From Vulcanimicrobiota bacterium (GTDB lineage Bacteria > Vulcanimicrobiota > Vulcanimicrobiia > Vulcanimicrobiales > Vulcanimicrobiaceae), in NCBI GenBank assembly GCA_963833095.1, contig CAWHWQ010000001.1, forward strand, positions 64,001-128,000: DNA of 64,000 nucleotides, written 5' to 3'. Below the pieces are notes generated by a model, which made no database searches, had not been told where the DNA came from, and worked only from the letters and a program-made list of their open reading frames with translations. Shown here piece after piece: positions 1-9,175 of the stretch; the stretch's first letter is position 1, and every line of letters starts with the position of its first letter. A program made the position numbers and the translations under genes.

Positions 1-120
1 GCTGAAGCTGTCGAGATCGACGACCAGCGCGATGCTCGATGCGACGATCACCACGACGACGGTAATGCCCAGCAACACGGCGTAGAGCAGTGAGAGCCGC
101 GAGACGATCGAAAGCTTCAT
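1..120 (-). CDS. Sensor histidine kinase, N-terminal fragment (runs off window)
   Basis: ATG at 118-120 reads MKLSIVSRLSLLYAVLLGITVVVVIVASSIALVVD, a TM helix typical of HAMP kinases; lies directly downstream of an OmpR-type regulator. Confidence 0.7.
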   Translation of the reverse strand, partial: MKLSIVSRLSLLYAVLLGITVVVVIVASSIALVVDLDSFS

Positions 121-144: not shown

Positions 145-843
145 CTAATTATGCTGCGAGAGCCCGTACCCGACACCCCGCACCGTGCGAATGAACGAGC
201 CACGCTCGCCGGGGCGATCGATCTTCGCACGGAGATACGAGATGTAGGTCTCGACGATGTTCGGTCCACCCTCGAAGTCATGTCCCCACACGATCTCGAG
301 CAAGTGGTCTTTGCTGAAGACACGTCGCGGCTCACGCATGAAAACCGAAAGAAGGTCGAACTCGCGCTGCGTGAGCTCGATGCCGTCCTTCCCCCGCATG
401 AGTTCGCGGGTTTGGGGATTGAGCGCGAGATCGCGCCAGCGGAGCACGTTCTCTTCGATCAATTGCGGCCGGCGCAACTTGGCTTGCAAGCGCGCGATCA
501 ACTCTTCGAACACGAACGGCTTGACCAAGTAATCATCCGCACCCGCGGTGAGGCTCTGAACCTTGTCGTCGGTTCCGCCCTTTGCGGTGAGCATCACGAT
601 CGGCGCTTGGGAAATCTCTCGCAGCTTGGGAAGGAGCGAGATACCGTCGATCTTGGGCATCATGATGTCGAGGACGATCACTTCGGGGTCGAAGCGCCGC
701 ACCAACTCTAGTGCGGCAAAACCGTCGGCGGCGGATTGCACGTCGTAACCTTCGCGCGAGAGTCCGAGCTCGAGCATTTCACGAATCATCCGGTCGTCGT
801 CAACCACGACCACCCGAGCATGAAGTAACGCAGTAGTAGCCAT
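145..843 (-). CDS. OmpR/MprA-family response regulator
   Basis: REC domain (VVDDD, LDIMMP, LTAK, KPF) and winged helix (NIVETYISYLRAKID, TVRGVGY). Confidence 0.95.
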   Translation of the reverse strand: MATTALLHARVVVVDDDRMIREMLELGLSREGYDVQSAADGFAALELVRRFDPEVIVLDIMMPKIDGISLLPKLREISQAPIVMLTAKGGTDDKVQSLTAGADDYLVKPFVFEELIARLQAKLRRPQLIEENVLRWRDLALNPQTRELMRGKDGIELTQREFDLLSVFMREPRRVFSKDHLLEIVWGHDFEGGPNIVETYISYLRAKIDRPGERGSFIRTVRGVGYGLSQHN

Positions 844-991: not shown

Positions 992-1447
992 TTAGGCAGC
1001 ACGCAAGGGTGATGGCCAGCGAGAATAGCGTTGGCCGCAGATCAGAGCGGCCTGCCGGATAGCCTCGAGCGGGTGGACCACCAGCGTCACGCCGTCCCGA
1101 CGGAGCGCCGCCGTCATCACGTCGTCCGGTAACCAGTGGGCAAAGAGATGCACTTCGGAGGTCTGGGCCGCGTGGGCAAGTTGGGCCAGCACCTCGGCAA
1201 GCGTGCAGCATCCCCGCTCGAGGAGCGGAGCGACCAAATCGGATTTGACCCGAGCCGCATTCCAGCCGGTGGCCAAGACCACGACCTTGGTGAGCTCGTT
1301 GCTGCTGCTGGATTCGAAGTCAACCAACGCAGCCCGAACGCTCGCGGCCAGGGCGCTGTCGGTCTGCGCGTGGAGGGTCGCGCCGGCGATGCTTGCACTC
1401 GGACCCGCGGTAAGGACCGCCCCCGAACCGATAACGTAGTCGTTCAT
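992..1447 (-). CDS. Hypothetical protein
   Basis: ORF from MNDYVIG with a GGAG RBS; no recognisable motif. Confidence 0.6.
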   Translation of the reverse strand: MNDYVIGSGAVLTAGPSASIAGATLHAQTDSALAASVRAALVDFESSSSNELTKVVVLATGWNAARVKSDLVAPLLERGCCTLAEVLAQLAHAAQTSEVHLFAHWLPDDVMTAALRRDGVTLVVHPLEAIRQAALICGQRYSRWPSPLRAA

Positions 1448-2564: not shown

Positions 2565-2593
2565 AAAAAAGTCCGAGCCAGTTTCGGCTGGGC
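2565..2593 (-). terminator. Intrinsic terminator after the small peptide ORF
   Basis: GCCCAGCC-GAAACT-GGCTCGGAC imperfect stem followed by TTTTTT. Confidence 0.6.
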
Positions 2594-2658
2594 TAATTCC
2601 CCATCGGGGGGGCGTCCGCCGCAACGATGAGGGTCGCAAGGATGAGAAGGGTCAGCAT
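2593..2658 (-). CDS. Unannotated 21-aa peptide MLTLLILATLIVAADAPPMGN (putative signalling pre-peptide)
   Basis: Translated by hand; GGAGG at 2672-2676; hydrophobic core ending in VAA followed by a polar tail; terminator immediately downstream. Confidence 0.6.
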   Translation of the reverse strand: MLTLLILATLIVAADAPPMGN

Positions 2659-2724
2659 GGGTGAGAACAAGCCTCCAAGCAGGTGCAGCGCTGCTATCAC
2701 GATAGCCGCTGGCCCAGGCCAAAA

Positions 2725-2748
2725 GCCCTACTGAAATTTAAGTAGGGC
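2725..2748. promoter_or_regulatory. Inverted repeat, LuxR/NarL-type operator candidate (or terminator)
   Basis: GCCCTACTGAAATTTAAGTAGGGC; minus-strand core TACTTAA-AT-TTCAGTA (7-2-7); -10-like TATCGT at 2699-2704 on the minus strand. Confidence 0.55.
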
Positions 2749-2753
2749 CGTTC

Positions 2754-5399
2754 CTACCCCTCGTTCAGGAGCCCAATTCGTCGGGCTGCGGCGATCGCTT
2801 CCGCCCTCCCATGGCACCCGAATTTATCGATGACGTTCTGGATGTGGGTCTGGACCGTATAAACCGACCGGCCCATCTCAGCGGCGATCTGCTTCGGCGT
2901 CAGTCCAGCTGCCAAGTCGCGCACAACGCGTAATTCCTGCGGAGTAAGCACGATGGCCGTCCCCGGTTCCTGTTCGCGCTGCAAGTGCGCGGCGACGTTT
3001 TCCACATAACGCGCGTATCCGCCGAAGCCGAATTGACGAATCGCCTCGATCGTTTCGTCGATTCCGTCGGGCGCATAGGACGGGCTCTTGGCAGCCCGCG
3101 CCAGCTCCTCGACGGCTTTGCGCATGCACGGCCCCGCCTCGTGTTGGCCGTGGTTTCTTCGCTTGAGCAAACGCGCAGCAGAGGTATGGCGTCCTGCGAC
3201 GATTTCGGCAAGCACGAGAATGGCCAAGGCAAAATCCAAAATCACGGCACCGGAGTACTGCTCCGGCGCAGCGATGTCGTCCACGAGACTCAAGGTCGTG
3301 GTGACCAAGGCGCCGCTTTCCTTGAAACGGCCGTCGAGCGCCAGAGCCAGCGCGCAGCTCGCCCGTACGATCGCACGGTCGGGGATGTGAGCTTGGCGAT
3401 CGATCACGCTTCCGAAGAGCCGGTGCGCATCCGCATAGTTGCCCACCCACGCATGCCGGTGCGCCTGACTGGATGCAAGGTATGTGCTCAGAGCCAGCGC
3501 GTCGCGAGGCGTAAGCTCCGCGAGCTGCTTCTCAATCTGGACAGCACGATCGGCATTTCCGCGGCGCGTTTCGAGACTGAGCATGAGCACCAGGGCGTTT
3601 TGAAGGTCCACGTAATCGCCGGCTCGCGTCGCGGCGGTCGCCGCCTGCTGCGCAAACCAGAGGCTCTGCGCCGAATCGCTTTCGCCAAACAGTGTCAGGA
3701 GTGACAGATTCCGGAATGAACGCGACGCGATGCTCCACAACGCGATCCTCGATCCGAGTTCGGCTGCCTCGGACAGCCGTTGACGCCCTCTTTCGATCTC
3801 GCCGACGTTGACGTGCGCTACGCCAATACGAAAGGCGATGCGCGCGAGCCATTCATCATTCTCAACGAGCGCGCTTTGAGCTTCGGCGGAATCGATGAGT
3901 CTGCGCGCCTCGGCCATATCCCCGGATCTGGCACGCCATTGCGCTAAGAGCGCTTCACCCTCCGCCCGGATCGGTCTGGGCAACGCCGGCTCTGAGAGCA
4001 AGTCCGACAAGAGATCCATGGCGTTCGCTTCAATGTTCGTGCGGTGTACTGCGAGACGAAGCATCAACTGCCCGCGCAATTCGGTCGATTCGATTGAGCG
4101 CGTGGAACGCGCAATCTTGCGCTCGCCTTCGTCGTATCTGCCGCGCGCGAGATCCAGAAGCCCGCGCAGCCCGGTGACGACGGCGTTTTTCTCGAACGCA
4201 TTCCCCAGCGACGCCGCGGTCAGCGACTCGAGCTCGTCGGCAAATCCGCTATCTAGTAATCGAATGCCGTGGGCGGCGAGCAGCCTCAGGGCGTCGTTCG
4301 GCGAATGCGAATCGACGTACAAGCGCAGCGCTTGCGTGACGTTGCCCCGCTGTTCAAGAATTTGGCCGAGCGTCGAGAGCCGGTCGCGCTGCACGCCACT
4401 GCCGCGCAATTCAATTTGGTGGCGTACGAAATCGCGGAAGAGGTCGTGCAGCCGATAGCGTCCCGGTTCGTACTCGTGAATGAACGCGACACGGGCGCGT
4501 AGATCCTCAATCAATGCCGCCGCGCGATCGAATCCGGCAGCGACCATCACGTCGAGATCGATCTCCGGAAGCAAAGCAGCGGTCTCGATAAAGTTCTGTT
4601 CCTCGCCGCTGAGCGTTTGGTACACTTGCTCGGCGAGATAGCGATAGATCATCTCGCGCGTCATCGACGAGATGTTGCGCAGATCGACTGAGCGTGTCGA
4701 CGAGCGCAGCGCGAAGGTCATCGCCGTCGCCCATCCATCGGTGAGCTGCAGGAGCTCGACTAATTCCTCATCGCGCACGCCCAAGCGGAAGGTGCGCGCG
4801 GCCTCTTTAGCTTCTTCGACCGAGAACTTCAGATCGTGTTCGTCGATCGCGAGGTCGCTTTCGCCGTAGGCGAGCCACGTGCCGATCGGTAAGCCGCTGG
4901 TTGCACGCGAGGCGATGATCCACTGCACCCGACCCTTGGTGCGTTCGATTAGCGACGTGACAAATCGCGCGACTTCGCGATCGCCCTGCGCGACGTGCAA
5001 ATCGTCGATCGCGATCACGCCGCGATACGAGCGCAAATGCGAATGCATCCACAGCGCCAGATCCGCGCCCGGCGACTGCGCTCCGGCATTCTTTTCGTAC
5101 GCGCCGGCCAGCGTTCCGCGCGCGTCGGGGGCGATCTCTACGACCGCGTCGGCGAACCCGCGAAGAAATCCGAGTAGCCCGGCGTTTTCAGACAATACGT
5201 CGTAACGAACGTGGGGCTCAGCGAGCGTATCGAGATAATGACGCAGGGCTACGGATTTTCCGTACCCCGCGGGAGCCACGATCAACACGACGCGCTGCAT
5301 CGCAGCAGAGGCGATCCGCTCGATGATGCGCCGCCGGATGATCGGAACGAAAACCCCGCCGGTCTCGATTTTTCCGTCGGGGCGAACGGGTCGAATCAT
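2754..5399 (-). CDS. MalT-like STAND ATPase-TPR-LuxR transcriptional regulator
   Basis: Walker A APAGYGKS, Walker B IAIDDLH, TDGWATA, YRLHDLFRDF, helical repeats, C-terminal LuxR HTH (LTPQE...TVQTHIQN). Confidence 0.9.
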   Translation of the reverse strand: MIRPVRPDGKIETGGVFVPIIRRRIIERIASAAMQRVVLIVAPAGYGKSVALRHYLDTLAEPHVRYDVLSENAGLLGFLRGFADAVVEIAPDARGTLAGAYEKNAGAQSPGADLALWMHSHLRSYRGVIAIDDLHVAQGDREVARFVTSLIERTKGRVQWIIASRATSGLPIGTWLAYGESDLAIDEHDLKFSVEEAKEAARTFRLGVRDEELVELLQLTDGWATAMTFALRSSTRSVDLRNISSMTREMIYRYLAEQVYQTLSGEEQNFIETAALLPEIDLDVMVAAGFDRAAALIEDLRARVAFIHEYEPGRYRLHDLFRDFVRHQIELRGSGVQRDRLSTLGQILEQRGNVTQALRLYVDSHSPNDALRLLAAHGIRLLDSGFADELESLTAASLGNAFEKNAVVTGLRGLLDLARGRYDEGERKIARSTRSIESTELRGQLMLRLAVHRTNIEANAMDLLSDLLSEPALPRPIRAEGEALLAQWRARSGDMAEARRLIDSAEAQSALVENDEWLARIAFRIGVAHVNVGEIERGRQRLSEAAELGSRIALWSIASRSFRNLSLLTLFGESDSAQSLWFAQQAATAATRAGDYVDLQNALVLMLSLETRRGNADRAVQIEKQLAELTPRDALALSTYLASSQAHRHAWVGNYADAHRLFGSVIDRQAHIPDRAIVRASCALALALDGRFKESGALVTTTLSLVDDIAAPEQYSGAVILDFALAILVLAEIVAGRHTSAARLLKRRNHGQHEAGPCMRKAVEELARAAKSPSYAPDGIDETIEAIRQFGFGGYARYVENVAAHLQREQEPGTAIVLTPQELRVVRDLAAGLTPKQIAAEMGRSVYTVQTHIQNVIDKFGCHGRAEAIAAARRIGLLNEG

Positions 5400-5415: not shown

Positions 5416-5739
5416 TCAGCCAGGGGAAGCTCGGTACTCTTCCTGTCCCTCATAATACCCCAACAGCAGCTCTTCGACATAGAGCAGATGCAGATCGCGG
5501 TCAAGCTTCGAATAAGCCGCTGCGTTTTCGGCACGAAACCCGTCCCAATCAGCCTTGGAATTCCAAACATCCATGCAGAGATAGACTCCCGTCTCCGCCC
5601 GATGCCGAAACAGCCGCGTCCGCCGGTAACCGGGATGGCTTGAAAAAAGGGCGACCCAGGGGCCTGCGGGGCCATAGGCATGCTCGAACGCGCGAACCTG
5701 CGCGGGATGAACCCGGTAGCGGTAGAGCACTTCGATCAT
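5416..5739 (-). CDS. ABM (antibiotic biosynthesis monooxygenase)-like dimeric alpha-beta barrel protein
   Basis: FEHAYGPAGPW, HPGYRRTRL and YLCMDVWNS pattern. Confidence 0.65.
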   Translation of the reverse strand: MIEVLYRYRVHPAQVRAFEHAYGPAGPWVALFSSHPGYRRTRLFRHRAETGVYLCMDVWNSKADWDGFRAENAAAYSKLDRDLHLLYVEELLLGYYEGQEEYRASPG

Positions 5740-6335
5740 CGTCGAAGGTCGAACTTTGCGGGCAACGGCACGTCCCCTTTGCCGATGGTCCGGCTGACAT
5801 CATACGCAATGAGATCACCCAGCGCGTCGAGCCGTGCCGCCAGCCACGTGTGTTGAGCCGGACACGTGATTTCCCCGAGCTCGAGCACCAGGGCTCCATC
5901 CTGCGCATCGACCTGCCGGAAGGCATAATAGTCGTGCAATCCCACCGTGAAATTGTCCGGCATGAAACGAAACGGAAAGAGCGGTGCGTAAAGCGCGCGC
6001 CAGAGCTCCGCGGCGTTGCGATCGGCGAGGCGATGATAGCCGATCGATGCGCCGCTGGTGCACGCCGGAACGGCGCCGTCAAAATGAATGAAGATGGCCA
6101 TTCCGACTGCATAGCGACCGTCGAAATCGGCCGGCTCACGAATCACGTGAAGTCCGTGCGCGCGCAGGACGCGCGTTGCTTCGTCGGCGACCACCGGGGT
6201 CCAATCACGCTCGCCGGACGCGCCTAGGTTGCATGCACGCGTTGGAAAACTCGCGCAAGACGCCGGACGCCCTTCATGGCCTGCCGAGATCAAGACATCG
6301 GCATGGACGAGCGCCGCGAAAACCAGCTCCAGCAT
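5736..6335 (-). CDS. N-acetylmuramoyl-L-alanine amidase-like protein (Amidase_3)
   Basis: Zn-ligand pattern ISAGHEG...E...IFIHFDG...LVLELGEI. Confidence 0.7.
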   Translation of the reverse strand: MLELVFAALVHADVLISAGHEGRPASCASFPTRACNLGASGERDWTPVVADEATRVLRAHGLHVIREPADFDGRYAVGMAIFIHFDGAVPACTSGASIGYHRLADRNAAELWRALYAPLFPFRFMPDNFTVGLHDYYAFRQVDAQDGALVLELGEITCPAQHTWLAARLDALGDLIAYDVSRTIGKGDVPLPAKFDLRR

Positions 6336-9175
6336 TATGAGCCCGCGACCAGCGCGGAGAGCGTCGCCGAGGGTTCGACCTGCAGTTCGCTCCTGAGCAC
6401 TTCGCGATATTGCCGATAGGTGCGCAGCGCTGCCGCGCGATCACCGACCGCGAGATGCGCACGAATTGCGACTTCGCGTGCCGGCTCGTCACACGGATCG
6501 CAAGCGATCACATCGCCGGCAAAGGCAAGGGCGGCATCAGGATCGCCGCGCTCAAGTGCGTCCGCCGCCAATCGGTGCGCAATCCCCGTGCGCAGGTCAT
6601 CCATGCGCTGCGCTACCGGAGCGAACCACTCCCAGCGTTCGAGCGCACCTGCGCGTTCTTCACGCAAACGTTCCCAGGCGCGTCCAAGAGCTGCGCGGTC
6701 GCCTTCGCGTAGCCGGTCGCGCGAACGTAGCGCCAAGGCGGCGCGATCGATCTCCCATACGTCGACGAACGCGTCGGCATGCAGCCGATATCCGTCGGCT
6801 TCGCGTTCCACTGCGTCCTCGCGCCCAAGATGCCCGCGTAAACGGTGCAGACAAACGCTCAGCGCATTGCGCGCGGCAAAATCGTCGAGATCCGGCCAAA
6901 GCATTGCCGCCAGGCGCCCACGCAGTGTCGGCTCGCGGCGCTGCGCGATCGCTGCGAGCAGTTCGAGTTCGCGCCCCGACACACGCGCTAGCGTGCCGTC
7001 CACACGCACGCGCCCACCGAGAATCTCAAGTGCGAGCGGCGCCGCTTCGCTGCGGTCGCGCGTGATCTGCGCGACGAAATTCGAGAGCATTCCAACGTTC
7101 TCGTGCTGGTTGGCAAACGCGCCCACCGCGTGAACGAACGCTGGTGCGTCACAGTGCGCAGCGGCCTCTTTCGCGCGCGCGGATGCCGCATCGAACGCGG
7201 TGGGATCGCACAGCGCCAGGGCTATACCCGCCAACGCTTCAACAAACGGCATATGCACCTGGCCGGCCAACTCGAGCGCCGAGTTCGCAAGCGCGGTGCG
7301 TTCCTCGTCGTCGCGCGAGCGCGAGAGAGCGATCAGCCGGCCAAACACGACGAATTTCGGGATGTCGGCGGCGCAGGGTTGTACGCTGTGCCCGCGCGCC
7401 GCTGCGGCGAGATAGGCAAAGCCGGCAACGCCGCCGCGCGTCACGAGGCCTTCGAGCTCCGCGGCGATCGCGTTAAACGCCGGCCGGTCACCCGAAAACC
7501 ACGCGGCGATGAGCGATTCGGCAGTATCGAACGCCATGAAATTGGGCAACCCTGACTGTATTGCGCGCTCGTGCGCGCGGGCCAAGAACTGACGCTCGAG
7601 CGACCATTCCCCACGCACGCGCGCGATGTCGGCACCTAACGCCAGATACGTCCCCGACGCGACGACGTGCATTTGATCGATCAGCGGAAGCGCAGCATTG
7701 AGGTCCCTCTCACCGAGATCGAAATGACCGCTACGCGCGCGCAAGATTCCGCGTAGATACAAGACATGGCCATCAAGCATGGTCGCGGGCGGATCGGAAA
7801 ATCCGATCTGCCCTTCAAAATCCGCAATTGCGACGAGCGCTTCGTCGAGCTTGCCCACGTAGCTCATCAGCAAGATGCGAAAAACGAAGACGTAGTAACG
7901 CTCCATCGGCGTTGCGTTACGGGCGAGAGTCCTCCACACCGTTTCGGCCTCGTCGAGCAGCGCTGAGCTATCGACGCAGAAGATGCGCATCAACGCGGTG
8001 ACGCCCCACAAACGTGGATACCGCGCAACGATCGCCCGGTCTAGACCTGAGAGAACCTGCGCGTAGCGCATCGACGGAGCCGGCTCGCGCACCACTTCAA
8101 GCGAGCCAAGCGCACGCGCCGCAGCGTGTTGATCGCCGCGGGCGATATGCAGCTCTGCCGCGCGTTGAAAATTACCGCGACCTTCTTGCGTTTGCGCCAG
8201 CCGCAAAAGCAACGCATCACGCCGGTCCTGCGCATGCTCGAGCAAAAGTGCGCAAAGTAGCGGGTGCAGTGAAAATGAACCGTTCTCCCCGCGCTCGATG
8301 AAGGCGGCGTCCCGGGCAAATTCGCTCACATCGTCAACGATCGATGGATCGTCGAGGGCGGCGCGCAAGTCGTCCGCAGTCGCCTGCGGAATTGCAGCGC
8401 AAGCGAAGAGCGCGTCGAGCATGCGGCGATTCAACCCGGCGAGCACCTCGTCGGCGAGATAGTCGTGCAATTCGTCAAAAGCAACGTCGTCGAGTCGCTC
8501 CAGCAGTTGGTCGATCCGCCCTTCGCTTGCGAATCGCCTCAAAAGGAATACGGCGACCGGCCATCCTTGCGAGACCCTAAAGATGCGCTCGATCGAGCTG
8601 TCCTCGATCGTAAGCGGCGCAAAAATTTCGCGAATGTCGGCTGGGTTGAATGCAAGGTCGCCGGCACGTAACGTGACGATTTCGTGGGGCACCGCGTATT
8701 TCGTCAGGTGCCCGCGCAGTGGCTCGCGCGAGCAAATGACCACGGTTCGTCCGGCAGGCCGAGCCACGAGGAGCCGTGCGAAAAGTTCGCGGGCGCCCGG
8801 AGCGTCCGCCAGACGCTCGACGCCTTCGAAGACGATGCAGCCTTGGGCGGGTTCGCGCCAAACGTCGAGCGCCAGCGACACGCGCTCTGCGACGCTGGTG
8901 CCGCCATCGCCAAGCATCAACTCGCGTTGCGTCAGGTCGCGTTCGCGACCCGGATTTTCGCCGGCGAGAGCCGGGATGAGGCAGCGCGCCAAATCGAGCT
9001 CGTCTCGGACGTTCGCGCAATCGCAAACCGCGCCGCTCCCGCGCTCGGCGAGAAATTGCTGCACCAGCGTCGATTTGCCAAAGCCCGCCGGGGCGACGAT
9101 CGCAACCAGCCGGGCATCCACCTTGCGCAGCCGTTCAAGAAGCCGGTCGCGCCGGAGCGAGCCGCCCACCACCAT
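6335..9175 (-). CDS. MalT-like ATPase-TPR regulator with C-terminal SARP-type wHTH and BTAD
   Basis: APAGFGKS, SQGWPVA, LWPDLDDFAARNALSVCLHRLR, and BTAD motifs DPCDE...ELQVEPS. Confidence 0.88.
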   Translation of the reverse strand: MVVGGSLRRDRLLERLRKVDARLVAIVAPAGFGKSTLVQQFLAERGSGAVCDCANVRDELDLARCLIPALAGENPGRERDLTQRELMLGDGGTSVAERVSLALDVWREPAQGCIVFEGVERLADAPGARELFARLLVARPAGRTVVICSREPLRGHLTKYAVPHEIVTLRAGDLAFNPADIREIFAPLTIEDSSIERIFRVSQGWPVAVFLLRRFASEGRIDQLLERLDDVAFDELHDYLADEVLAGLNRRMLDALFACAAIPQATADDLRAALDDPSIVDDVSEFARDAAFIERGENGSFSLHPLLCALLLEHAQDRRDALLLRLAQTQEGRGNFQRAAELHIARGDQHAAARALGSLEVVREPAPSMRYAQVLSGLDRAIVARYPRLWGVTALMRIFCVDSSALLDEAETVWRTLARNATPMERYYVFVFRILLMSYVGKLDEALVAIADFEGQIGFSDPPATMLDGHVLYLRGILRARSGHFDLGERDLNAALPLIDQMHVVASGTYLALGADIARVRGEWSLERQFLARAHERAIQSGLPNFMAFDTAESLIAAWFSGDRPAFNAIAAELEGLVTRGGVAGFAYLAAAARGHSVQPCAADIPKFVVFGRLIALSRSRDDEERTALANSALELAGQVHMPFVEALAGIALALCDPTAFDAASARAKEAAAHCDAPAFVHAVGAFANQHENVGMLSNFVAQITRDRSEAAPLALEILGGRVRVDGTLARVSGRELELLAAIAQRREPTLRGRLAAMLWPDLDDFAARNALSVCLHRLRGHLGREDAVEREADGYRLHADAFVDVWEIDRAALALRSRDRLREGDRAALGRAWERLREERAGALERWEWFAPVAQRMDDLRTGIAHRLAADALERGDPDAALAFAGDVIACDPCDEPAREVAIRAHLAVGDRAAALRTYRQYREVLRSELQVEPSATLSALVAGS

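Follow-up and report, generated by a model that had tools for sequence, protein, structure and literature searches.

Does the short spacer between a STAND-LuxR regulator gene and an HD-GYP gene in an Eremiobacterota genome hold a peptide gene of its own, and if it does, what would the peptide do? We addressed this question for a stretch of 64,000 nucleotides (nt), hereafter the window, which covers positions 64,001 to 128,000 of the forward strand of contig CAWHWQ010000001.1 (assembly GCA_963833095.1; 2.8 Mb, 8 contigs, 81% completeness). An earlier interpretation made from the letters alone (the sequence-only reading) had proposed that the regulator switches on the gene of a 21-residue pre-peptide, that cleavage after V-A-A releases the heptapeptide D-A-P-P-M-G-N, and that the tetratricopeptide repeat (TPR) region of the regulator senses this heptapeptide in the manner of RRNPP quorum systems. 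The parts that it had named are all present on the minus strand and can be read directly from the sequence (Table 1). Behind the TAG stop codon of the regulator gene follow, in this order, an inverted repeat, the hexamer TATCGT, a GGAGG motif, a 21-codon open reading frame (the small ORF), a hairpin with a run of six T, and the ATG of the HD-GYP gene. The small ORF starts 96 nt past the regulator stop codon, and its product, MLTLLILATLIVAADAPPMGN, is a hydrophobic stretch free of Lys and Arg followed by the tail D-A-P-P-M-G-N.

Comparison with related genomes indicates that the small ORF is a conserved, previously unannotated gene and that the inverted repeat next to it changes together with the DNA-binding helix of the regulator. 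We lean towards a reading in which the locus is a conserved regulatory cassette of Baltobacteraceae-type Eremiobacterota, where the STAND-LuxR protein would control a mini-peptide gene together with the genes behind it, and where the tail of the peptide would act in trans.

Conservation of the small ORF

Taken alone, the window sequence provides weak evidence for the ORF and for both hairpins, the structures being partly above chance. The inverted repeat folds with -19.1 kcal/mol (z-score -2.9; 2 of 200 shuffles as good), and the hairpin behind the ORF with -10.9 kcal/mol (z-score -1.4; 18 of 200 shuffles as good). Terminator-like sites between positions 1400 and 6400 numbered seven against 5.1 +/- 2.4 expected, i.e., not above chance, and a scan of the same interval found no sigma-70-like consensus promoter and no -35 match. 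Four DNA runs over positions 2450-2850 contained no variant within the small ORF; they consist of contigs only and are uninformative on this point. On the window alone, the locus could thus be read as nothing special, that is, as the intrinsic terminator of the regulator gene (the repeat is followed by TTTT and folds well, at a place where terminator-like sites are no more frequent than expected) and a chance 21-codon frame in the leader of the HD-GYP gene.

The comparative samples, all of which consist of related genomes, give a different picture. Orthologues of the regulator were found in 17 of 17 genomes of the same genus, Aquilonibacter, with 62-83% identity. A phylum-wide search of 301 genomes returned relatives at E <=1e-40 in 181 of the 206 genomes of the family and in all three of a sister family, whereas the other 19 families gave none, and 40 further matches were sampled from this search for the family-level loci. 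Both tallies include genomes flagged as unpublished (G025; G236, G211, G262, G264, G290, G252), the sequences of which were not used.

An intact small ORF of 21-22 amino acids (aa) was present at the same position downstream of the regulator in 17 of 18 same-genus loci, including the window. At the family level, a hydrophobic ORF preceded by a Shine-Dalgarno (SD) sequence was found in each of the 31 full-length orthologous loci (19-42 aa, mostly 20-29 aa). The same filter accepted only 2 of 31 reverse-strand sequences, 1 of 174 other windows and 5 of 620 shuffled sequences. A second sample of 80 loci, 73 of which have at least 330 nt downstream, overlaps with the first because it was drawn from the same species collection; here the ORF was detected in 69 of the 73 loci (61 with the strict filter and 8 with a relaxed one). 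The remaining four comprise two loci that look frameshifted (L174, which is the same as L008, and L208) and two without any such ORF. In L008/L174 and L208, a single-base frameshift lies within the small ORF and the conserved tail runs on in another frame; they may be assembly errors or pseudogenes. Because this conservation is far above the reverse-strand, other-window and shuffle controls, the small ORF is a conserved gene, as the sequence-only reading had supposed, and the chance frame loses its ground.

The pattern of change is also that of a coding sequence. Length differences among same-genus loci are whole codons, and the entropies of the three codon positions in the same-genus alignment are 0.94, 0.54 and 1.09. 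The ratio of nonsynonymous to synonymous polymorphism (pN/pS) is 0.60 in the proposed frame, compared with 0.90 and 1.68 in the other two, and divides into 0.55 for the hydrophobic part and 0.81 for the tail. The composition is similarly constrained: Lys and Arg are absent from all 53 peptides compared, Pro occurs among the last 10 residues of 51 and Pro-Pro in 34, and the tail past the first Pro has mostly 4-6 residues. Such a combination is rare in the genome itself, where 20,026 ORF/start combinations of 18-30 aa yielded 23 candidates that are hydrophobic and free of Lys and Arg, and only the small ORF of the window combines these properties with an SD sequence and a Pro-containing tail. 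A search with 20 of the peptides produced no match in Pfam and only composition-level matches in NCBIfam (E >=0.029).

Several contigs with the locus at 72-81% protein identity (L037/L167, L038/L168, L040/L175, L173 and L176) are titled Alphaproteobacteria, Candidatus Acidoferrum or Acidiferrales. They are probably mislabelled Eremiobacterota bins.

The regulator and its predicted operator

Domain matches place the regulator in the MalT/LAL class of STAND-LuxR proteins. Its C-terminal helix-turn-helix (HTH) domain matches GerE (PF00196, residues 817-870) with 47.8 bits against a cut-off of 23.5, and its N-terminus matches AAA_22 (E 1.2e-6), AAA_16 and nSTAND_NTPase5, with a GYGKS P-loop in the translation. 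TPR matches in the middle region are weak and sub-threshold (E 0.002-0.006). The NCBIfam MalT model aligns with residues 20-440 (E 3e-34), and a direct equivalent of Escherichia coli MalT was ruled out by its score, 118.1 bits against a curated cut-off of 537.

The palindrome behind the regulator gene is a single match in the 2.8-Mb genome, even when up to three mismatches are allowed. In same-genus orthologues, its 18-bp core shows little or no variation, even in the would-be loop; the 5' flank, by which the stem would be extended, varies without compensation, and the T-run behind the palindrome degenerates, being absent in many orthologues. A role as Rho-independent terminator only was rejected on these three grounds. 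In family-level loci, the 18-bp palindrome is preceded by AAACGG and located about 23 nt ahead of a TAxxxT hexamer and about 85 to 68 nt ahead of the ORF start, and the distances to the -10 hexamer and to the ATG are fixed across genera. The hexamer itself reads TATCGT or TATGGT at equal spacing in same-genus loci and TAxxxT in the others.

The half-site is what differs between lineages (CTACT, CTAGT, CTACCC and CTCGTCC), and it does so in step with the recognition helix of the adjacent regulator. Helices of the Q-T-H type go with C at half-site position 4 in 29 of 31 cases by automatic detection, with one more recognized by eye and one lacking a site; Q-A-H helices go with G at this position in 7 of 7 (six by automatic detection, plus L082), and RTINTVRTHVSS-type helices go with the CTCGTCC half-site in 4 of 4, counts that overstate the number of independent events because the genomes are related. 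Within a single genus, g36, both Thr/C and Ala/G are represented (L078 and L096 versus L080). As an RNA hairpin is not expected to follow a protein helix, the palindrome should be more than such a hairpin. Its behaviour is that of a binding site for a protein, fitted to the LuxR HTH next to it, and it is operator-like by comparison. The invariant loop, the poorly conserved T-run and the tracked helix, together with the conservation of the ORF far above its controls, make a mere terminator with a chance frame behind it exceedingly improbable.

The palindrome ends where a -35 element would begin, and there is no -35 match, which fits an activator-dependent promoter. We infer that the regulator activates, rather than represses, the small-ORF promoter. 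The 7-2-7 appearance of the palindrome presumably resembles that of NarL-type sites.

Relatives of the regulator differ in whether they carry the cassette. The second STAND-LuxR protein of the same genome (L002) is without it. Among nine lower-identity paralogues (L097-L105), two have a similar ORF and one has a 44-aa lipoprotein-like ORF, and a further set of paralogues gave no small ORF in the eight whose reading frame was correctly identified. In genus g36, STAND-LuxR genes occur in tandem duplicate (33-37% and 43-45% identical to the window protein), with the small ORF after the second copy. STAND proteins without a detectable LuxR HTH (L060, L061 and L063-L065) directly precede HD-GYP genes, and no small ORF was seen there; a pairing of STAND and HD-GYP genes seems to be common in the family.

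Nature of the peptide

Lipoprotein precursors have a basic n-region, a hydrophobic core and a lipobox ending in Cys. The window peptide lacks both Cys and Lys/Arg, and 24 of 53 relatives have the Cys only; none of the short peptides of the family has a basic n-region. A full set of these features is found in the sister family. Four genomes of genus g21 have an ORF of 49-51 aa at the equivalent place, i.e., behind the LuxR stop codon, a CTACC-N8-GGTAG palindrome, an equally spaced -10-like hexamer and a 5' untranslated region (5'UTR) in which the context CTTGGAGGCT recurs at the end. Its product starts with M-T-R and continues with a hydrophobic core, L-A-A-C, a linker rich in Ser, Gly, Thr, Pro and Gln, and a C-terminus of the form D-(S)GG-[LM]-P-P-N-x. 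In many same-genus peptides, D-M-P-P or D-M-P-A comes immediately after L-V-A-C; others, including that of the window, have A-A-D. The Aquilonibacter peptides read like the lipoprotein-type precursor of g21 minus its linker.

A second variant was found in genome G023, where the product of a 68-aa ORF (L109:3846-4052, minus strand) has a hydrophobic beginning and then repeats D-A-P-S-P-G-F three times in tandem, with a basic residue behind every unit. Most differences between the three copies are at synonymous third positions. The layout of this cassette is the same, with a paralogous STAND-LuxR protein (28% identity), a CCCTACCC-N5-GGGTAGGG palindrome past its stop codon and an HD-GYP gene behind. 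Taken together, the lipoprotein-type precursor of g21 and the tandem tail copies of G023 suggest that the product is exported and that its short Asp/Pro/Gly tail forms the functional unit. We consider this plausible, and the tail that the sequence-only reading had singled out does look like the functional part. A signal peptidase II gene is present in the genome, as are 12 matches to Opp/Dpp-type binding proteins (11 above the cut-off); this shows capacity only.

The HD-GYP gene and a possible leader role of the small ORF

The gene behind the small ORF is, by its domain (Pfam HD_5, PF13487, 130.5 bits) and the HD and G-Y-P motifs in its translation, a member of the cyclic di-GMP (c-di-GMP) phosphodiesterase family. 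The ORF listed for it starts with a TTG at position 2639, whereas alignments with orthologues begin no earlier than the Met at 2561. Among 31 family-level loci, 24 have an HD-GYP gene behind the small ORF; it is absent in five loci of genus g33, and two contigs end too early to tell. In g33 the small ORF is kept beside the regulator where the HD-GYP gene is missing, which ties the peptide gene to the regulator and not to the HD-GYP gene. In other genera (L066-L068), the gap between the ORF stop and the HD-GYP start is only 8-15 nt, which argues for an operon of the small ORF and the HD-GYP gene. In the window, the unit lies directly ahead of the HD-GYP gene and is probably co-transcribed with it, and the link to this gene drawn in the sequence-only reading holds. 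The same reading had called the locus a complete miniature transcription unit. Its parts are indeed in place, but the notion of a monocistronic unit found no support, as the hairpin and T-run are genus-level features and the short gaps elsewhere indicate an operon.

The spacer of Aquilonibacter raises the alternative that the small ORF works in cis, as a leader or arrest peptide without a function of its own, in which Pro-Pro pausing 4-6 codons ahead of the stop would control downstream expression through hairpin melting or termination-reinitiation. Of 16 comparable same-genus spacers (26-36 nt), 14 fold with -7.6 to -14.4 kcal/mol, with stems that differ by species. The hairpin sets in at or just past the stop codon (within 1-5 nt), and a T- or pyrimidine-rich tract reaches the HD-GYP ATG, which has no SD sequence of its own. 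The short gap in L066-L068 and the constant position of Pro relative to the stop codon would suit a leader as well. Other observations are hard to bring in line with it. All 53 peptides keep a hydrophobic N-terminal part free of Lys and Arg, which a leader acting in the ribosomal tunnel does not need; the homologues of 49-51 aa carry a lipoprotein-type signal, and the HD-GYP gene downstream of them has its own SD sequence; and the 68-aa form with three repeats does not fit. Further, no conserved spacer hairpin was seen outside the genus (3 of 31 loci with z below -1.5), folding of the 145-nt leader does not surpass that of shuffled sequences (z +0.6), no conserved alternative structure was found in it, and the ORF is kept where the HD-GYP gene is absent. 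We therefore regard a leader as an improbable explanation of the locus. By its distribution, the hairpin of Aquilonibacter is probably a partial terminator or attenuator that was added later at the genus level.

In the g33 loci L083-L088, a different GC-rich conserved hairpin, GGTGGCGC ... GCGCCACC, without a T-run, is located 10-45 nt past the small-ORF stop.

Who would sense the peptide

If the tail acts as a signal, the regulator itself is one candidate receptor. In its fullest form, a special case of the cassette that we favour, this would be an RRNPP-like autoinduction, in which the peptide is exported, cleaved after V-A-A and re-imported, and the heptapeptide binds the sensor region of the regulator and thereby activates the peptide/HD-GYP promoter. 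The adjacency of receptor gene, operator and small ORF would suit such a circuit, as would the Opp/Dpp-type binding proteins of the genome. Divergence in the sensor region (residues 400-800) is threefold that of the NTPase module (0.36 versus 0.11), and the tail diversifies fast as well, as in pherotype systems. The tandem tail units of G023 also have a counterpart, as tandem copies of a pheromone in one propeptide are described for RRNPPA systems (PMC11343458).

A direct sign that the tail is sensed by the repeat region was sought in two ways. The distances of tail and sensor region, controlled for the NTPase module, had a partial correlation of 0.15 (permutation p ~0.18), which is not significant. 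A co-fold of the sensor region (residues 330-800) with the 21-aa peptide, using alignments A3 and A1, scored 0.22 against a mark of 0.32 with a chain shorter than the calibration set of the tool, and this model counts neither for nor against binding. The proposal that the TPR region senses the peptide thus found no backing in either result. In addition, the receptor is not homologous to RRNPP receptors, lipoprotein-type homologues would be tethered rather than diffusing, and a membrane histidine kinase conserved nearby offers an alternative sensor. Full autoinduction is thus unlikely in our view, if a little less so than the leader. The wider proposal remains equally tentative, namely a peptide autoinducer circuit outside Bacillota on a MalT-type STAND scaffold, in which the regulator would activate the mini-gene beside it, whose exported tail of 6-7 residues, either free or lipid-anchored, would be sensed by the fast-evolving repeat domain of the regulator or by the linked kinase, whose output would be lowered c-di-GMP through the co-transcribed HD-GYP protein, and which would serve species-specific cell-cell signalling in a phylum of uncultured bacteria from soil and peat.

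The linked kinase is an equally plausible candidate receptor, and its position follows from a conserved gene order. In g33, the small ORF is followed by a 151-aa protein, an OmpR-type regulator, a HAMP histidine kinase and a TonB-dependent-receptor-like gene; likewise, these genes follow the HD-GYP gene in the window and in most family-level loci. The 151-aa protein of the window is 50% identical to the product of the gene directly after the small ORF in g33, and it was found in 12 of 18 family-level loci and in L106-L108, i.e., in 15 of 21. The OmpR-type regulator, assigned by Pfam, has a counterpart in 16 of the 18 family-level loci (66-90% identity), and 15 of these counterparts reach 75-90%. 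The kinase (L110:4652-6079, minus strand), with HAMP, HisKA and HATPase_c domains, is conserved after this response regulator.

This order leads to another possibility, that the small ORF encodes an uncleaved inner-membrane peptide, a small 'connector' that modulates the HAMP kinase a few genes downstream or another membrane protein and so links the STAND sensor to a two-component system. Consistent with it, regulator and kinase are conserved in 16 of 18 family-level loci and in L106-L108, and the single hydrophobic helix has a length typical of small membrane proteins. However, the hydrophobic stretch of 13-16 residues is short for a membrane span, the 53 peptides have no flanking positive charges, g31 and g21 have the ORF but no kinase within 7 kb, and the synteny may be merely inherited. 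We judge a connector about as improbable as a leader, and a purely membrane-level role of the peptide, taken more broadly, is possible.

Proposed mechanism

In the cassette that we favour, a dimer of the STAND-LuxR HTH would bind the 18-bp palindrome just past its own stop codon, where the site abuts a promoter with a -10 hexamer and without a -35 element. The regulator would control, and most likely activate, transcription of the tiny gene and of the genes behind it; here these would be the gene of the HD-GYP c-di-GMP phosphodiesterase and perhaps also those of the 151-aa protein and of the two-component pair. The hydrophobic N-terminal part of the peptide may be a shortened segment for export or anchoring, derived from a lipoprotein-type signal peptide or related to one, and the Asp/Pro/Gly tail of 6-7 residues would be functional outside the cytoplasm, either cleaved free or held at the membrane. 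The peptide would then serve in trans, either as a signal or by modulation at the membrane level. In Aquilonibacter, the hairpin and T-run at the peptide stop codon would lower read-through into the HD-GYP gene.

Several observations weigh against this cassette and keep our preference for it modest. The palindrome was not recognized in five of six g33 loci though the ORF is kept there, the g33 helix being of the R-V-H-I-A-N type. The co-variation of operator and helix comes from related genomes and amounts to a handful of independent switches. With a pN/pS of 0.81, the tail is near neutral. Lacking Cys and a basic n-region, the window peptide has neither a canonical Sec signal nor a canonical lipoprotein signal, and the precursor with three repeats occurs in 1 of 251 family genomes (G023 only). 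The HD-GYP gene has no SD sequence of its own and starts 8-36 nt past the ORF stop, which leaves room for a cis role of small-ORF translation.

Features and neighbouring genes of the locus

The coordinates of the cassette and of its neighbours are collected in Table 1. The 151-aa protein belongs to no family in Pfam or NCBIfam. Its AlphaFold2 (AF2) model reached a predicted local distance difference test (pLDDT) value of 84, and a comparison of this model with the PDB gave nothing at E <=0.001 with Foldseek and a best Z of 5.5 with VIA-align. A likeness to the N-terminal domains of Xaa-Pro peptidases, several of which appeared at Z 3.4-4.2, was too weak and was rejected. All 15 orthologues examined (L141-L154 and L106-L108) end in Ala-Ala, mostly as R-A-A, which is reminiscent of a C-terminal degradation tag.

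After the kinase, just outside the start of the window, lies a TonB-dependent-receptor-like pair (CarboxypepD_reg and Plug, then an 839-aa ORF; L110:1223-4628, minus strand), whose position is kept in most family-level loci with 53-63% identity. It suggests an outer membrane and a possible uptake route. On the other side of the regulator, the 946-aa STAND protein has an unusual combination of domains, and a homologue of the ABM gene is also found ahead of a paralogous STAND-LuxR cassette in G132 (L108).

Table 1 Features of the regulator-small ORF locus in the window and coordinates of related loci
Feature	Position	Strand	Basis or placement
MalT-like STAND ATPase, 881 aa, with repeat-rich sensor region and C-terminal LuxR/GerE HTH	2754..5399 (including stop codon)	-	ORF, Pfam, orthologues
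Inverted repeat, 24 nt; 18-bp core (2745..2728) as proposed operator of the adjacent LuxR HTH	2725..2748	.	Sequence, comparison
-10-like hexamer TATCGT, 23 nt past the palindrome core, without a -35 match	2699..2704	-	Sequence, comparison
Shine-Dalgarno GGAGG in conserved 5'UTR, 13 nt ahead of ATG	2672..2676	-	Sequence, comparison
Small ORF, 21 aa, translation MLTLLILATLIVAADAPPMGN; ATG 2658, stop 2593-2595	2593..2658	-	Sequence, conservation
Hairpin (stem 2576-2589) and T6 (2565-2570) between small-ORF stop and HD-GYP start; probable partial terminator or attenuator	2565..2589	-	Folding
HD-GYP (HD_5) protein, 328 aa from ATG 2561, with uncharacterised N-terminal domain of ~140 aa	1575..2561	-	Pfam, orthologue alignment
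Conserved 151-aa protein of unknown family (P0003 from internal Met)	992..1447	-	Orthologues
OmpR-type response regulator, member of the conserved downstream neighbourhood	145..843	-	Pfam, orthologues
Start of HAMP histidine-kinase gene, running past the window edge	1..78	-	L110 domains, synteny
ABM monooxygenase-like gene	5416-5739	-	After 199-aa ORF
ORF of 199 aa, no family	5736-6335	-	After 946-aa STAND gene
Second STAND protein, 946 aa, N-terminal AAA_16, C-terminal Trans_reg_C and BTAD	6335-9175	-	Directly upstream of regulator
Tandem STAND-LuxR loci of genus g36	G134:C6:60562-65832; G224:C18:2779-8051; G117:C3:163904-169192; G101:C6:903586-908872		

Comparison with known systems

ORFs of about 20 codons are missed by genome annotation, and the small ORF is among the most stably placed features of its locus across a whole uncultured family of Eremiobacterota. 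The cassette joins a regulator, a matched operator, a peptide and a second-messenger enzyme, and predicts a swap of specificity between Thr/Ala in the helix and C/G in the half-site. Should the peptide prove to be a signal, communication by genetically encoded peptides through a cytoplasmic or membrane receptor would reach a new phylum and receptor scaffold and be coupled to c-di-GMP; as a membrane modulator or a leader, it would still represent a new family of small proteins with a defined regulator. The small ORF is therefore a good candidate for a new peptide-based regulatory module. We found no description of a STAND-LuxR regulator with an adjacent peptide gene, or of peptide signalling in Eremiobacterota, in the literature searched, subscription journals being outside its coverage.

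Leader and arrest peptides such as TnaC and the Erm leaders are encoded by ORFs of about 20 codons directly upstream of the gene that they regulate. The small ORF shares with them its length, a residue at a fixed distance from the stop and, in Aquilonibacter, a hairpin at the stop codon. It differs in the conserved hydrophobic N-terminal part free of Lys and Arg, in the lipoprotein-type and multi-repeat homologues and in being kept without the HD-GYP gene. In heterocyst-forming cyanobacteria, the PatS/HetR system provides a case of a tiny ORF in a diderm whose last few residues are the signal and act on a transcription factor. There is no known relation in sequence or family to this system, HetR is not a STAND protein, and no operator is known to be linked to an adjacent regulator gene there.

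Regulators of the MalT/LAL class share with the window protein the N-terminal P-loop STAND module, the long helical-repeat sensor region and the C-terminal GerE HTH. The known ligands of this class are small metabolites, and we know of no MalT/LAL regulator with a dedicated adjacent peptide gene. The window regulator, by contrast, is far under the MalT equivalog cut-off and does have such a neighbour.

Systems of the RRNPP(A) type in Bacillota (Rap/Phr, NprR/NprX, PlcR/PapR, PrgX, AimR/AimP; also Rgg/SHP) offer the closest parallel. Surveys such as RRNPP_Detector (PMC10075063) are framed around Bacillota. As in these systems, a regulator gene with a repeat-type sensor stands beside a very short ORF, here one of 21 aa that is conserved in the orthologous loci; the peptide has a hydrophobic N-terminal part and a short C-terminal unit that looks active; and the tail diversifies quickly between species, with tandem copies in one relative (G023). 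Unlike them, the host belongs to Eremiobacterota, with an outer membrane suggested by the TonB-dependent-receptor-like gene, and a basic n-region is missing from the peptide. The candidate receptor, a STAND NTPase, has an AAA_22/AAA_16/MalT-like N-terminus, sub-threshold TPR matches and a C-terminal LuxR/GerE HTH, and is not an RRNPP homologue with an N-terminal HTH; membership in RRNPP is thus not supported. While it fails on receptor homology, the cassette would, by analogy, work most like the RRNPP/Rgg-SHP modules.

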